Numbered from the stretch's first letter, positions 7,455 to 40,846 are shown. The stretch is 40,846 nt of DNA from Bacillota bacterium (GCA_009787915.1 WQSK01000004.1:1-40846), one strand, 5' to 3'. The notes: a model not told the origin generated them from the letters alone. Numbers and translations: made by a program.

Positions 7455-7991
7455 ATGAAGGGGCTAATCATTTTTTGCATTCTATTATTTGTGGCGTCAA
7501 TAGCCCCACTTTTTTCATGGGGCAAGAGTTACGACGACGTCATAGCCACCGCCGCCCAAATGTTCGGCATAGAGGAACACGAGTTCGAGATTAACCTAAC
7601 CCGAGGTCGCGTAGTAAATGCGGCAGGCGAAAACGTAAGCGGAACCTTCCGCCTCTGTGTCCGCGTTACCGAGTACAATCGGGTCTACGGTGTCTATGTA
7701 ATAAACGTTCGTCAAACTTTTTCCCGTCCAATGACGATACAAACAATCTTCCACGAATTTGCACACGCGGCGCAACACAAGTTCCGACTCTGTTTCGGCG
7801 GACTCCACCGCGAACAACACGCCGAGTTATTGGCTTTCAACAAAATGTGGCACGGCGGTTTTTGGTGGGACGCCCTGCATATGCTCGGGGTTCACGGACT
7901 TCGCTTGAAGCCAAGTGATTACCTTGTCCCCCGCCAAATCATGCGCACGATGCTAACGGGCGAAATCACAACACCTATAAATTTTGTCTAG
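7455..7991 (+). CDS. Secreted or membrane-anchored zinc metallopeptidase-like protein
   Basis: N-terminal hydrophobic signal; FHEFAHAAQ (HEXXH) with downstream Glu in REQHAE. Confidence 0.65.
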   Translation: MKGLIIFCILLFVASIAPLFSWGKSYDDVIATAAQMFGIEEHEFEINLTRGRVVNAAGENVSGTFRLCVRVTEYNRVYGVYVINVRQTFSRPMTIQTIFHEFAHAAQHKFRLCFGGLHREQHAELLAFNKMWHGGFWWDALHMLGVHGLRLKPSDYLVPRQIMRTMLTGEITTPINFV

Positions 7992-8188
7992 GGGAATCCG
8001 CGTGCGAAAGGGTGAGGGCAGTCGCATATGTACTTTTACAGTTTGAGAATCTTTCTTGAAAAATCGCATTTTCACTCTTGATCCATATTTTTGTTTTCAA
8101 GGCGAAAATAGTGATTTTACCAAGAAAGGCTCAAACCATATAAAAGTACATATGCGACTGCCCTCACCCTTTCGCACGCGGATTCCCC
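7991..8188. repeat. 198-bp palindromic element (copy A) with perfect 48-bp terminal inverted repeats
   Basis: 7991-8038 is the exact reverse complement of 8141-8188; the interior continues pairing with bulges. Confidence 0.95.
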
Positions 8189-8232: not shown

Positions 8233-8706
8233 ATGTCTGTTGGGGAAAAAGAAGAAAAGGAAAAACTGGTCGAAGCCACAATTGTCGCCGTGCAATCGAG
8301 TTTTATAGAAAATAGGCTCTTTTACGACGAGGTCTTGGTACGATTCAAAGTAGATGAAACAACACAACTGAAAATGTTTAACAGTCCGCTCTTGGAAGCA
8401 GACGATATAAGGCTTTGGCGCAGAATTGTTTTGACCGCCGTAACGGGAAATGAAACAAGTCCCATCGCCCGCGCTGTAAATTTTTTCAAAGACTATAAAT
8501 CCACCCTTATGGGGAAAAAAGTTTTGGTTTCATGGATTGACCATGATGTTTGGGGTATCGGAAAAACCGATGACAAAATGTTCTATCCTGGTCAGCACGG
8601 TCTTTGGGGTGACGATGACGAAGAAACATCGCTTAACCTGAGCACATATGCAAACGAAAATGTCACACCAATAACCGACGCCCCAGAAACCCCTCCCGTA
8701 ATTTAA
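8233..8706 (+). CDS. Hypothetical protein
   Basis: 157-aa ORF preceded by TTGACA-18-TATTAT-6 nt-ATG. Confidence 0.7.
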   Translation: MSVGEKEEKEKLVEATIVAVQSSFIENRLFYDEVLVRFKVDETTQLKMFNSPLLEADDIRLWRRIVLTAVTGNETSPIARAVNFFKDYKSTLMGKKVLVSWIDHDVWGIGKTDDKMFYPGQHGLWGDDDEETSLNLSTYANENVTPITDAPETPPVI

Positions 8707-8824
8707 ACCTAAAAAGGCATTTACTACTTTAATAAAATATCTATGATAAATAGTCTTGAGGCTATTTTAGGGAAAAGATTGCAAACTACAAAATTATACT
8801 CGCGTACCCTTGCTCACCCTTTTT
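8707..8824 (-). repeat. Truncated copy (C) of the palindromic element family
   Basis: Minus strand reads AAAGGGTGAG...TTTTGTAGTTTGCAATCTTTTCCCTAAAATAGCCTCAAGACTATTTAT, matching copy B core TTTTACAGTTTGCAATCTTTTTCCGAAAATCGCTTCAAGACAATTTAT and copy A arm AAAGGGTGAG. Confidence 0.75.
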
Positions 8825-11284
8825 TCATGTTCCGACAATGTTTTTGCCGCCGCGACATCTAAGGTAGTATTTTCTTAGCATATCCATTGGCACAATCGCC
8901 AAAGCAAACATAACCGCAACCAAAAGATGCCCAATCAAAAGCGGTTCCGCCCTAAACACATTCCCCCCAAAGAAGATAAGCAATATCTGGGCAAGCGTCA
9001 CAATCGCCATAATAATCACAAACGGTTTGTTAAGCAAAAGTCCCTGTACTGGGTTCAAACTATGAGTTCGGGAATTGAAACTGTTAAAGATGTTCACGAA
9101 CATAAAGAAGGCAAAGAACGCAGTCATCGCATACACCGTACCATGCGGGCTTAGCGAATTTTGCACAATCGGAGATAATATAAAAAACATAGACATCAGA
9201 GAAATCACAAATGTTCCATAAAGAATCTGCCCCCACATATATTTGTTGACAATTGGTTCATCTCGTCGTTTTGGGGCTTCGGACATGTATTTTTTATGAG
9301 GTCGCTCTCCCCCAAACGCTATGCCTGCTAGGGTATCCATGACGATGTTAATCCATAGCATCTGCATAACGGTTATTGGCATACCTACGCCAAAGAACGG
9401 AGCCAAAATTGAAATCGCCATAGCAACAAAGTTTATTGTCAGTTTGAAAATCAAAAACTTTCTAATCGACTTGAATATTGTGCGCCCGTAACTTGTGGCT
9501 TTGGCGATGCTTGTGATATTGTCGTCCATTATGACTATGTCACCTGCTTCTTTGGCGACCTCGGTGCCACTCCCCATTGAAAAGCCAACATCCGCGGATT
9601 TAAGGGCGGGTGCATCATTAACCCCGTCCCCTGTCATCCCGACAACCAGCCCAAGACTCTGCGCCACCATAACCAAACGGCTCTTGTCATTCGGGAGTGC
9701 CCTTGCAACGACACGGAGGTTAGGTAAAACCAGTTTCAATTTATCGTCACTTAGTTTCCCAAGTTCTTTTGACGTCAAAACAACTTCGTTTGAATCCCCT
9801 GTAAGGATTCCGACTTCACGGGCAACGGCGATTGCGGTTTCACGGTTATCCCCCGTTATCATAACAGTTTGAACCCCTGCGGTTCGCATATTGGAAACGG
9901 CGGTAATTGCCTCGGGGCGAACATTGTCGCGAATGGCTACCAAGCCCACAAAAGTACTGTCCACCGCAACTGCGATTACGCGGTATGCTTTTTGGGTGAA
10001 CCCCGCGACTGCTCTGTTATATTCGGTCAGGTCCTTGCCTTTACACATCGCAAAGATGACCTCGGGTGCGCCTTTGTACAAAACACGGCCGTCCGCCAAA
10101 GTTGTTTTCATATATTTGTCGCGACTGTTAAAAGGAGTTTGGTTTTTAACATCAACACTTTGATATTTACGGCTTGAGGCATATTCCAACAAAATCCTAT
10201 CCGTAAAGTTCCCACCAATTGCCCGACCGCTCTCGTTGATTCGGGCACTTGTGTCGTAACGCAAAATCGTATTAAGCATCTCCTCGTCATCCGTTACGAC
10301 TTCTACGACTTCCAAATGTCCGTTTGTAAGGGTTCCTGTTTTGTCGGTGAACAAGATGTTCATGCTCCCCGCGGTTTCGATACCTCCGAGTTTCCTCACC
10401 AGAACATTGTCTTTCATCATGTGTTTCATATTGGAGGCGAAAACAACCGTTATCATCATGGGGAGCCCCTCGGGCACAACCATAACAATGACCGATACGA
10501 TAAGCGTCCCCGTATGGACGATATGTCTGAATCCAAATGTTTCCCCATTAATAACGAGGGCGTTAAAAAGATACGCACCCGCAATCACGACCGCACCGAT
10601 ATAGCCGATGACACTTATAAGTTTCGCCAAATGCTCCAGTTTGATTTTAAGCGGGCTTTTTGGTTGTTCGGATTGAAGTTCCGACGCCATCTTTCCATAA
10701 AAAGTATTATCACCCACGTGTGTCACTCGCATGACTGCCTCGCCGTTTGTTACAACGGTTCCTGAATAAACGATACCTGAACTCACCCCTGGTTGTTTTG
10801 TGGCTTCGGCACTCTCGCCATTTATAAGGGATTGGTCGACCTCGATTTTACCGCTTATCACCTGACCGTCTGCGGGGATTTTGTCCCCCGCCGACAAATA
10901 CACAATGTCGCCAACAACCAAATCTTCAATTGGAATCTCTGTTGCCCCTTGCGACCGCTGGGCCCGAACCTTTATATTTTGAACCGCGCGCTGGAGTTTC
11001 TCGAACGCCGCTTGGCTCCCTTGCTCTGATATTGTAGAAACAACAACTGCAATCAAAATCGCCGCTGCTATACCGATTGTTTCCAGGACACTTTCATGAC
11101 GGAAAACAAACATACTGTTGACCGCGAGTGCGACCAGGAGAATTTTTAACATAGGGTCGTTAAAGTTCGCCAAAAAATTCCTAAGCCACGACACACGCCG
11201 TTTTTGCGTGATAACATTTGCGCCGTGTTCTTTGCGACTACTTACAACCTGTTCTGGGGTCAAACCATCGTGCTTTAACGCCAT
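8825..11284 (-). CDS. Cation-translocating (Ca2+-type, P2) P-type ATPase
   Basis: NGES, VPEGLP, DKTGTLT, KGAPE, TGDN, GDGVNDAPAL, LWINIVMD. Confidence 0.95.
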   Translation of the reverse strand: MALKHDGLTPEQVVSSRKEHGANVITQKRRVSWLRNFLANFNDPMLKILLVALAVNSMFVFRHESVLETIGIAAAILIAVVVSTISEQGSQAAFEKLQRAVQNIKVRAQRSQGATEIPIEDLVVGDIVYLSAGDKIPADGQVISGKIEVDQSLINGESAEATKQPGVSSGIVYSGTVVTNGEAVMRVTHVGDNTFYGKMASELQSEQPKSPLKIKLEHLAKLISVIGYIGAVVIAGAYLFNALVINGETFGFRHIVHTGTLIVSVIVMVVPEGLPMMITVVFASNMKHMMKDNVLVRKLGGIETAGSMNILFTDKTGTLTNGHLEVVEVVTDDEEMLNTILRYDTSARINESGRAIGGNFTDRILLEYASSRKYQSVDVKNQTPFNSRDKYMKTTLADGRVLYKGAPEVIFAMCKGKDLTEYNRAVAGFTQKAYRVIAVAVDSTFVGLVAIRDNVRPEAITAVSNMRTAGVQTVMITGDNRETAIAVAREVGILTGDSNEVVLTSKELGKLSDDKLKLVLPNLRVVARALPNDKSRLVMVAQSLGLVVGMTGDGVNDAPALKSADVGFSMGSGTEVAKEAGDIVIMDDNITSIAKATSYGRTIFKSIRKFLIFKLTINFVAMAISILAPFFGVGMPITVMQMLWINIVMDTLAGIAFGGERPHKKYMSEAPKRRDEPIVNKYMWGQILYGTFVISLMSMFFILSPIVQNSLSPHGTVYAMTAFFAFFMFVNIFNSFNSRTHSLNPVQGLLLNKPFVIIMAIVTLAQILLIFFGGNVFRAEPLLIGHLLVAVMFALAIVPMDMLRKYYLRCRGGKNIVGT

Positions 11285-16867: not shown

Positions 16868-17595
16868 TTCTTTGCCTCAATTTTGATGTCCGCAAATTGG
16901 TTGTCTTGAACAACGCCAATCTCGCCCGTTTTTAAAAGTTCCAACAATGCAAGGAAAGTATTAATAACTTCGCTCTTTGTAAAGTCCGCCTCGAACAGGT
17001 CAAAAAACATAACACGTTTGCCCGAGGTTATCCGCGTTCGGATGTCAGCCATTTTGTCGCCAACGGTAAAGCGGTCCATGCGTATTTGTTTCGTCACAAT
17101 CTGCGGAGCATTAAATTGCAAACGGTGCATGACCTTTTGAAAAGCGGAGGTCAGCATATCAATACTTAGGTTATCCAAAACATATTTGTATTCTGGCTTG
17201 AATTCCACAGGGGCTTTGTAAAAGCGGTCTACGTTTTCGGTTTCTTTTAATTTTTCGCTGGCTTCCTTTAACAACTTGTATTCTTCCAATTGCCTCAAAA
17301 GTTTCGCCTCGATGTCCTCGGGGTCCTCCTCGATTTTTTCTTTTGGTAAAATCCCTCGGCTTTTGATTTCAACAAGGGTTGCCCCTATATCAATGAACTC
17401 GACGGCATCATCCAAATTCAACTGGTCAAGTTGTGACAAAAATTCAAGATACTGCTCTGTCACCAAAGAAAGTTGCACGGTTTTGATGTCCAACTTTTTT
17501 TCACGAATTAAATGGAGCAACAAATCCAACGGCCCATCAAAGTCGGTTATATGAATATGATGCTTTTGCTGTGCGGTTTCGTTTTGTTGTTCCAT
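16864..17595 (-). CDS. scpA: SMC-Scp complex kleisin ScpA
   Basis: FDGPLDLLLHLI, TEQYL, EIKSR, FLALLELLK. Confidence 0.96.
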   Translation of the reverse strand: MEQQNETAQQKHHIHITDFDGPLDLLLHLIREKKLDIKTVQLSLVTEQYLEFLSQLDQLNLDDAVEFIDIGATLVEIKSRGILPKEKIEEDPEDIEAKLLRQLEEYKLLKEASEKLKETENVDRFYKAPVEFKPEYKYVLDNLSIDMLTSAFQKVMHRLQFNAPQIVTKQIRMDRFTVGDKMADIRTRITSGKRVMFFDLFEADFTKSEVINTFLALLELLKTGEIGVVQDNQFADIKIEAKK

Positions 17596-18502: not shown

Positions 18503-18699
18503 TAGTATATTACGGCGGCGACGCACATGTGCCTCGCTTGTTCTTTTACAGTTTGCAATCTTTTTCCGAAAATCGCTTCAAGACAATTTATAAATTAAAT
18601 ATTATCAAAAGATATAAAAGCCTTGAAAGTGATTTTACGTCAAAAGTGCAAACCTTGTAAAAAACAAGGGAGGCACATGTGCGCCGCCGCAACATATTA
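18503..18699. repeat. ~197-bp palindromic element (copy B)
   Basis: CGGCGG..CGCACATGTGCCTC.CTTGTT.TTTTACA pairs with TGTAAAAAACAAG.GAGGCACATGTGCGCCGCCG; same inner helix as copy A. Confidence 0.9.
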
Positions 18700-40053: not shown

Positions 40054-40100
40054 CAGCCCTACGATCGGTTGCTTGTTAAGGGCAAAAAGGAGTGTGTAAA

Positions 40101-40846
40101 ATGAACAAAGCAGTAATCTACGCAAGGTACAGTTCCAACAACCAAACGGAACAGTCGATTGAAGGACAGGTTAAAGTCTGTGGGGAATTTGCCCAACGAC
40201 AAAATCTCGCCATTGTAGGCGAGTATGTTGATCGTGCTATGACGGGGACTAATGACAAACGTCCTGAATTTCAACGCATGATTTCGGACAGCAAACAAGA
40301 AATATTTGACGTGATTTTGGTGTATAAACTTGACCGATTTTCTAGGGACAAATATGAAAGTGTGGTTTATAAACGACAACTTAAAGAAGCAGGCGTTAAG
40401 GTCGTGTCGGCAACGGAAGCCATAGCGGACTCGCCAGAGGGCATTTTGTTAGAAAGTGTCATAGAGGGTTACAACCAGTTCTATTCAGTGGAACTCTCTC
40501 AGAAAATTAAACGTGGCAATCAAATCAATCTTGACAAGGGGAACTGGACTGGCGGAATTGTGACGTATGGGTACAAGGTTGTTGACAAGAAAATTCAAAT
40601 TGATAAACCCAAAGCCGAAATTATGAAAAAGATTTTTTCAGACTATGCAAGCGGAAAACCTAAGAAAGAGATTTGCAAAGAACTTAACGAAAAAGGTATA
40701 CGCAATAGAAGTGGCGAGCCTTGGAGTGTCACAAACATTTACCACAACTTGAAAAACAAAAACTACATCGGAATACTTGAACGTCATGGTGTTGAATACA
40801 CCAACATATACCCCAGGCTTATCGACGATAAACTTTTTGAAGAAGT
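40101..40846 (+). CDS. Large serine recombinase (partial, runs off right edge)
   Basis: My translation: MNKAVIYARYSSNNQTEQSIEGQ...RPEFQRMI...VYKLDRFSR...ELSQKIKRG...GGIVTYGY...LKNKNYIG; SD AAGGAG. Confidence 0.95.
   Translation, partial: MNKAVIYARYSSNNQTEQSIEGQVKVCGEFAQRQNLAIVGEYVDRAMTGTNDKRPEFQRMISDSKQEIFDVILVYKLDRFSRDKYESVVYKRQLKEAGVKVVSATEAIADSPEGILLESVIEGYNQFYSVELSQKIKRGNQINLDKGNWTGGIVTYGYKVVDKKIQIDKPKAEIMKKIFSDYASGKPKKEICKELNEKGIRNRSGEPWSVTNIYHNLKNKNYIGILERHGVEYTNIYPRLIDDKLFEE

Follow-up and report, generated by a model that had tools for sequence, protein, structure and literature searches.

The window analyzed here is a contig of 40,846 nucleotides (nt) from a Bacillota bacterium (GCA_009787915.1, WQSK01000004.1; genome G000, contig C4), and it carries two long palindromic hairpins, copies A and B, together with the remnant of a third, C4c. 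We consider it reasonably likely (probability of about 0.6) that they belong to a lineage-restricted, non-autonomous foldback DNA insertion, close in kind to the miniature inverted-repeat transposable elements (MITEs) and to the REPINs (hairpin-forming doublets of repetitive extragenic palindromic, REP, sequences), in which DNA-level copying between the two arms would maintain their complementarity. This reading builds on the structure of the element, its dispersal, its insertion relative to a congener, its decay by deletion, the DNA-type complementarity of its arms and the reassortment of arms and cores, all of which we could establish.

The genome is a short-read metagenome bin of 1.11 Mb in 107 contigs (43.5% GC, 76.7% complete). 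The region was present in a single public run, a termite gut metagenome (X1; DNA, contigs), and no RNA run was listed for it.

Copies of the element and their folds

Copies were found concordantly by BLAST, by an nhmmer profile and by a covariance model (R1). We thus obtained seven full copies on six contigs and four partial ones, distributed over nine contigs altogether (Table 1). The elements are non-coding, dispersed and short (176-198 bp, all below 300 bp), and they are the longest perfect palindromes of the genome. The copies are solitary and scattered among housekeeping genes, for instance those of PBP5, a P-type ATPase and a tRNA. The tRNA gene (59 bits; locus L034 on C93, 2552-2622, minus strand) lies 46 nt from the C93 copy. 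On C91 and C37, the outermost ends of the arms are present and the inner parts are lost, which is the signature of internal deletion. The first-pass annotation of the window had only two copies at hand; both further copies and covariation between the paired positions (see below) were found.

Copies A and B, which had been taken for long hairpins in that annotation, do fold far beyond shuffled sequences. The inverted arms of copy A (7991-8063 and 8116-8188; 73 nt) are 86% complementary, and the complete pairing announced for its outermost 48 nt was borne out (48/48). Its single-strand DNA fold reaches -86.5 kcal/mol, against -21.1 +/- 3.1 kcal/mol for 200 shuffles, none of which equals it (z -21.4). 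Copy B has inverted arms of 64 nt (18515-18578 and 18627-18690) that are 73% complementary, and it folds at -57.4 kcal/mol (z -11.6 against shuffles); its outer arms (18513-18542 and 18663-18690) differ by one mismatch and a 3-nt indel. The extent first given to copy B, 18503-18699, had to be reduced, the palindrome holding only for 18513-18690, while the outer 10 nt on each side form direct, not inverted, repeats.

The remnant C4c (8694-8828) still has a left arm and, from a B-type core (defined below), the left part; the right half of the core is degenerate and the right arm is gone. It occupies the spacer between the convergent genes 8233-8706 (plus strand) and 8825-11284 (minus strand, P-type ATPase), and its arm begins at the stop codon of the latter. 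Copy A and C4c bracket the open reading frame (ORF) 8233-8706 in inverted orientation. This ORF of 157 amino acids (aa) was considered as a transposase and rejected: it is an orphan present in one copy, falls into no Pfam or NCBIfam family and has only low-score hypothetical matches in the Atlas.

A conserved bulged core between variable arms

Each full copy has outer arms of 30-43 nt on either side of a core of 112-123 nt, an imperfect palindrome whose bulges are fixed and whose loop is AT-rich. Of the 150 alignment columns, 56 are invariant over the seven full copies. The inner motifs common to A and B and their equivalently placed bulges, on which the first description of the family was founded, are genuine and kept in all seven copies. 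A G.T pair in the core is also invariant (7/7 copies). The motif CGCA(T/C)ATGT, reported for both arms, indeed occurs in A and B and is not a trait of the family as a whole. We distinguished two core subtypes, one comprising A, C15, and C93 and the other B, C1, C46, and C3, with identities of 83-95% inside a subtype and of 71-78% across subtypes.

In the alignment of the seven copies, which includes 12 nt of the arms, 91% of the cells pair, changes on both sides were observed at 14 of the 45 pairs, and none of 500 shuffles matched the covariation score. When the partner was shifted by one to three columns, pairing fell to 32-50%.

A T-run on one side and an A-run on the other mark a sharp border between conserved and variable sequence beside the core. 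The dinucleotide TA found at this place was considered as a target duplication of the core and rejected: it becomes TG...CA symmetrically in C1 and C3 (pair 18/134), and the TA is therefore part of the palindrome.

Complementarity of the arms at the DNA level

The arms are free of mismatches in four of the seven full copies (A, 42 positions; C15, 34; C93, 35; C3, 36; 147 positions together) despite a divergence of 5-10% between their cores. Those of C46 contain one G.T pair, and those of B and C1 a few mismatches and an indel. Pairing in the arms is almost entirely of the Watson-Crick type, with a single G.T in about 248 arm positions, and the indels that separate the copies are mirrored exactly in both arms. 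The RNA fold energies of the two strands are alike, neither of them being consistently favoured. Watson-Crick arms, mirrored indels, perfect arms compared with diverged cores and the equality of the strands all point to a complementarity maintained at the DNA level. Arm-to-arm copying, one of the two causes put forward in the first-pass annotation for arms that differ between copies and match within a copy, is thus the best explanation of the perfect arms.

The structured RNA proposed at the same time is supported neither by an Rfam match nor by an asymmetry between strands. Rfam 15 gave no match at gathering scores in the window, and a search at E-values up to 1 on the seven loci only returned sub-threshold look-alikes of plant microRNA hairpins. 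Promoter-like hexamers are no commoner in the core than in shuffles. A terminator scan scored nothing at copy A; in copy B, a small hairpin with a T-rich tail inside each arm scored as terminator-like. The T-tract lies within the arm, and not after the hairpin, in eight arms. Selection on RNA would not be the cause of the pairing, and an influence on neighbouring genes as terminator or insulator would be a side effect.

Kinship of the arms and their reassortment with cores

Eight of the eleven arms (A, C93, C1, C46, C3, C91, C17, and the window remnant 8694-8828) form one homologous, diverged group that includes both core subtypes. G-rich tips are common to these arms, as are an A-tract with GGGTG behind it, a stretch that varies and a block rich in GC, and several pairs among them beat all 500 shuffles. 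The arms of C15, B, and C37 could not be aligned with the other eight, although the cores of these three copies are 87-95% identical to those of other copies. We dropped a division into two arm types, the likeness between the C15 and B arms being marginal (equalled by 7 of 500 shuffles) and C37 resembling neither. The arm differences therefore appear, from the alignments, to reflect partly the ordinary divergence of an arm resembling a terminal inverted repeat (TIR) and partly outright replacement. The initial view of arms paired within a copy and different between copies was thus correct, except that they are not freely different, most of them belonging to a single family.

The relationships of arms and cores were discordant. 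The cores of A and C15 share 95% identity, which extends over most of the loop, whereas their arms are similar only at chance level (0.41 against 0.42 when shuffled). Conversely, A and C46 have arms 78% identical for cores only 71% identical. This discordance indicates that arm and core modules have been reassorted between copies. In the independent assembly, a contig joins the end of the A-type core to the C15 arm (loose end at 8145); since, in addition, reads anchored in unique arms reach the diagnostic differences, we consider the reassortment to be real and not an effect of assembly. The X1 assembly has four joints elsewhere (9650-11142, 16973-17475), and its loose ends at 8145 and 18544 correspond to other copies of the family.

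Insertion sites, empty sites and target duplication

For three of the sites, we identified orthologous loci in a genome of the same genus (G001; 48-64% protein identity), and the hairpin was absent from all three. At the B site, G001 has 11 nt between the stop codon of the PBP5 gene and the next ATG, for about 200 nt here. At the C3 site, the stop codon abuts the -35 box in G001, where the element and 12 further bases intervene in our genome. The C1 site corresponds in G001 to a spacer of 38 nt. A usable orthologue was not found for three other sites. The comparison of filled and empty sites suggested in the first-pass annotation thus shows that the entire palindrome, including its arms, was inserted into very short spacers separating a stop codon from the following promoter. 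An nhmmer arm profile run over the genome only matched arms joined to cores, and we accordingly rejected the idea of solo arms or pre-existing hairpins. The arms came with the element and are not older terminators, because the G001 sites are hairpin-free and no hairpin made of arms only was found. In genome G005 (C2, L029), the PBP5 orthologue is followed by a bidirectional terminator of the classical type, with an A-run, a GC stem and a T-run; the 5' half of this terminator bears a loose resemblance, maybe by chance, to the A-tract-GGGTG in the arms of the common family.

The copies had been described as starting at stop codons. This is exact for copy A, which overlaps the final base of the TAG stop codon of ORF 7455-7991; in copy B, 7 nt separate the right end of the palindrome from a minus-strand stop codon (18697-18699), that of the gene for a PBP5-type D-Ala-D-Ala carboxypeptidase. 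Such contacts need no special cause because the spacers of this genome are so short. Downstream of copy A, a host promoter ends 6 nt upstream of the ATG at 8233, a leaderless-type geometry, and it marks the limit of the tolerated insertion space. Similar promoters immediately follow the C3 and C93 copies.

The first-pass annotation saw no target-site duplication. Imperfect direct repeats of 10 nt are in fact present at B and C46, the other copies being at background level. At B, both 10-mers resemble the single 10-mer, stop codon included, of the empty G001 site. The repeat at C46 matches at 7/10 positions when abutting the element and at 8/10 with up to 3 nt of slack. These repeats are no more than suggestive of a target duplication at the ends of the element. 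The 5' flank ends with TATTA or TCTA in six of the eight copies with an intact left end, a feature that stop codons and AT-rich spacers could also yield.

Distribution

The family is restricted to one lineage, as the relatives and collections sampled suggest. No copy was found in about 590 relatives altogether, nor in the genome, metagenome and viral collections. The core of A gave no BLAST match in 40 relatives, and a search with the core of B among 400 genomes from the same family yielded nothing but weak matches to the AT-rich loop (best E 2.5e-6, 20-60 nt covered), which were taken as chance. The covariance model R1 had no match in 150 genomes of the order; four weak matches in 39 relatives (E 7e-4 to 0.07) were rejected for their poor folds and the lack of the core motif. 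A scan for the exact core pattern returned two matches in the genome contigs and one in the metagenome contigs, each matching the pattern alone, and none in the viral contigs, where 18 matches to a looser 17-base pattern were obtained, none of them confirmed by R1.

A description of this family was not found in the open-access literature searched. On the evidence of these searches, the sequence family has not been described before; the kind of element, a small palindromic extragenic repeat with compensating stems, is known.

Features of the window and of the genome

Table 1. Copies of the foldback element in genome G000 and associated features. Coordinates on C4 are those of the window.
Feature	Contig	Coordinates	Strand	Description
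Copy A, full element (198 nt)	C4	7991-8188	+	Left arm 7991-8032, core 8033-8145 (A-type), right arm 8146-8188; covariance model 119 bits
Copy B, full element (about 178 nt)	C4	18513-18690	+	Left arm 18513-18542, core 18543-18662 (B-type), right arm 18663-18690; covariance model 147.5 bits
C4c, decayed third copy (partial)	C4	8694-8828	-	nhmmer E 9e-9; covariance model (R1) E 0.04; arm like those of C93 and C17 (0/500 shuffles)
Full copy	C15	12004-12184		BLAST, nhmmer, R1
Full copy	C93	2668-2851		BLAST, nhmmer, R1
Full copy	C1	40371-40560		BLAST, nhmmer, R1
Full copy	C46	44-239		BLAST, nhmmer, R1
Full copy	C3	14615-14811		BLAST, nhmmer, R1
Partial copy	C91			nhmmer, R1
Partial copy	C37			nhmmer, R1
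Partial copy	C17			nhmmer, R1; beside contig end
Host promoter just downstream of A	C4	8197-8226	+	TTGACA, 18 nt, TATTAT with preceding TG; 11/12; outside the element
Possible 10-nt target-site duplication at B, left	C4	18503-18512	.	7/10 match to 18690-18699, differences all transitions
Possible 10-nt target-site duplication at B, right	C4	18690-18699	.	Contains the PBP5-type stop codon (18697-18699, minus strand)

The ORF that precedes copy A (7455-7991, plus strand) encodes 178 aa with an N-terminal hydrophobic segment and a HEFAH motif of the HExxH type; it belongs to no family in Pfam or NCBIfam, and neither G001 nor G005 has an orthologue. At the end of the window, a large serine recombinase gene (40092-40844, plus strand) runs off the window and has an equally scoring twin at C1:64445-64876 (minus strand). 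Short matches, in reverse order, also link the window at 33.4-36 kb with C1 at 69-71.5 kb. The twin recombinase and the reversed matches suggest a duplicated mobile region, a prophage or a strain variant.

The genome harbours a second, unrelated hairpin family whose arms are conserved between copies (A-run, then CCCCCG) and which contains CCCCCTTT...AAAGGGGG hairpins. Its sites include C6:18905-19049, C21:14283-14449, C52:10-152, C16:17526-17674, C8:4755-4946, and C97:3118-3174, among others. An unrelated perfect palindrome is located at C89:3970-4044 (31-nt arms, 13-nt loop).

Discussion

A probable mobile foldback element and the points that weigh against it

We favour a non-autonomous element that would be mobilised in trans, probably as a single-stranded hairpin, the bulged core being the part read by a trans-acting protein. 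One arm would be copied from the other at the DNA level, and the pairing would thus stay perfect. This copying could occur through quasi-palindrome template switching, through the repair of an extruded hairpin, or when a symmetric element is regenerated from an asymmetric intermediate.

Several results weigh against this proposal, starting with the search for an enzyme. The first-pass annotation saw no cognate enzyme in the window, and six-frame searches extended this to the whole 76.7%-complete genome for the families considered: Y1_Tnp (PF01797, RAYT) gave no match, while control genomes were matched; DDE_Tnp_1 and the reverse transcriptase family RVT_1 were equally without match, and neither TnpB nor IS110 produced anything over the family cut-off. 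The only DDE-type gene found, an IS21-family transposase on C5 (8272-8598; L048 1040-2205, minus strand), is split into two ORFs by a stop codon, with no core match near it, and no parent insertion sequence was found in this genome. We also detected two tyrosine recombinases, which are generic and Xer-like (39-42 bits on the integron-integrase model, for a cut-off of 265), and five serine recombinase genes. None of these, nor the broken IS21-like gene, adjoins a copy. The absence of an enzyme is not a proof because 23% of the genome is missing.

Other difficulties come from the copies themselves. The fixed bulges and the invariant G.T pair show that arm copying spares the core, and an additional selection on the core would be needed to explain this. 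Target duplication is inconsistent, with a best repeat of at least 7/10 in three of the seven full copies, compared with four of 42 mismatched-flank controls. The empty G001 sites cannot date the insertions, the orthologues being just 48-64% identical, and no contig of run X1 skips an element, so that presence and absence within the population are not seen. Core orientation with respect to adjacent genes varies in the assembly; it may be unresolved there where perfect arms exceed 40 nt, and we gave it little weight because such arms may defeat short-read orientation calls. The evolutionary inferences rest on few events, drawn from seven full copies.

Alternative explanations

The sharp border at the T-run and A-run could also be explained if only the core were mobile or exchangeable, the arms being either terminator hairpins that pre-existed at each site or copies of the flanks produced by fold-back or template-switch expansion after insertion, and hence site-specific. 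The unrelated arms of C15, B, and C37 on well-conserved cores would fit with this scenario, as would the terminator-like small hairpin with its T-run in each B arm, and the expansion of inverted-repeat arms by template switching is reported in PMC13100816. We nevertheless find this explanation unlikely, although it deserves to be kept in mind: the homology of eight of the eleven arms, with their G-rich tips, indicates that the arms move together with the element, hairpins made of arms only are absent from the genome, the three empty G001 sites are hairpin-free, the possible duplication at B borders the arms and not the core, and the TA beside the core turns into TG...CA symmetrically in C1 and C3. 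The position of copies right after stop codons and ahead of the next promoter, together with the strong covariation and the invariant G.T (G.U in RNA) core pair, would rather recall a cis-acting RNA, the hairpin being selected as a terminator, as a stabiliser of mRNA 3' ends or as an RNase III site and spread by duplication; the A-tract and T-tract around a GC-rich stem in eight arms are also loosely reminiscent of a bidirectional terminator. This seems improbable to us, since Watson-Crick arms with such rare G.T pairs and mirrored indels are unlike a compensation at the RNA level, and the two strands fold about equally well. In addition, no terminator was scored at A, the T-tract is inside the arm, core promoter-like hexamers remain at shuffle frequency, no Rfam family reached its threshold, and in G001 the stop codon abuts the next promoter, so that no terminator is needed there.

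Structure and bulges conserved under a variable sequence, copies located directly after stop codons and the presence of two tyrosine recombinase genes could evoke attC-like sites of an integron-type system, that is, single-strand substrates of a tyrosine recombinase. The two recombinases being generic Xer-type proteins far below the cut-off, the copies occurring singly over nine contigs among housekeeping genes and not in cassette arrays, and the conserved centre with variable outside being the opposite of attC, we hold this to be very improbable. An assembly artefact in the form of chimeric fold-back contigs is scarcely credible: the bin is fragmented into 107 short-read contigs and palindromes assemble poorly, but the copies are internal to their contigs, with unique coding sequence to the left and to the right, the independent X1 assembly covers A and B letter for letter, and seven loci exhibit one architecture with different arms. 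Finally, the family could be a structure-read recombination substrate with the layout of attC reversed, in which the conserved bulged tip would be read by a protein and exchanged between stems that are rewritten at each move, via fold-back synthesis or an asymmetric intermediate. We regard this last possibility as speculative and unlikely.

Comparison with known systems

The foldback element adds a new example to the miniature mobile repeats, a well-known kind of element; it does not represent a system of a new kind. The first-pass annotation preferred an attC- or REPIN-like substrate or a structured RNA to a simple MITE; the TIR-like arm family (8/11), the empty sites of the congener and the decay by internal deletion are on the contrary MITE-like. 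The Correia/NEMIS, ERIC, and RUP elements are bacterial MITEs that form long hairpins; they are conserved from end to end, and their target duplication is fixed (TA for Correia). Our family resembles them in its size (100-200 bp), its non-coding nature, its TIR-like inverted arms, the lack of a transposase of its own, its intergenic positions near stop codons and promoters, and its decayed copies. It differs from them in that the middle of the arm diverges faster than the core and yet stays paired, in that three copies have unrelated arms, and in that the duplication is uncertain and the searches yielded no parent insertion sequence. Bacterial MITEs of this hairpin-forming type are the subject of the review PMC3184786.

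In REPINs, the outer REP units of 20-40 bp, with their GTAG or CGTC tag, are conserved and the spacer is variable. In the present family it is the centre that is conserved and the arms that vary; we observed no conserved REP units with GTAG or CGTC at the foot of the hairpin, where the tips read GGGG or GGCG, and the arms are not conserved 16-mers. Moreover, no Y1/RAYT gene was found in the 77%-complete genome, and there are about 11 copies instead of hundreds. Without RAYT gene and REP tag, membership in the REPINs is not supported. The resemblance is otherwise extensive: both are non-autonomous, extragenic and palindromic, form one long single-strand DNA hairpin and exhibit compensatory two-sided changes. 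Frequent compensatory changes in REPIN hairpins, and a putative asymmetric intermediate whose symmetry has to be restored, are described in PMC3116915; REPINs and the RAYT transposases that mobilise them are also the subject of PMC2817692 and PMC3733652. In our family too, symmetry may be regained starting from an asymmetric intermediate. For elements derived from IS200/IS605 (PATE), neither TnpA nor TnpB was found over the cut-off in the 77%-complete genome.

The attC sites have conserved boxes at their outer ends and a variable centre, and they form arrays beside intI, directly after gene stop codons. Our copies are likewise imperfect palindromes with conserved structure and extrahelical bases, located after stop codons; they have no outer conserved boxes, arrays or intI. 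With no integron integrase, no cassette array and a reversed layout, they do not qualify as attC sites.

Template switching is a mutational process and not an element family. PMC8604942 and PMC13100816 report that it homogenises and can extend inverted-repeat arms and that it inverts spacers; PMC7202029 and PMC5941160 also belong to the literature on template-switch mutagenesis at quasi-palindromes and on the homogenisation of inverted repeats. Such a process provides a DNA-level way for one arm to take over a change from the other, for arms to lengthen and for the spacer to invert, and it fits the perfect arms and the mirrored indels. It leaves unexplained the dispersal of the copies, the bulged core and the exchange of cores.

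Significance

If the reading of a hairpin recognised by its tip were true, the family would mark an undescribed hairpin-based pathway of transposition or recombination, and if an enzyme were found, it could show how hairpin elements move in bacteria without RAYT or IS200-type transposases. The family offers a clean and small case of arms that co-evolve at the DNA level around a fixed centre that passes from one pair of arms to another. It thus helps to tell DNA-level homogenisation of inverted repeats from selection on RNA structure, two processes often confused when RNAs are nominated from covariation. In small genomes of uncultured organisms, covariation alone would flag mobile foldback DNA as RNA candidates.

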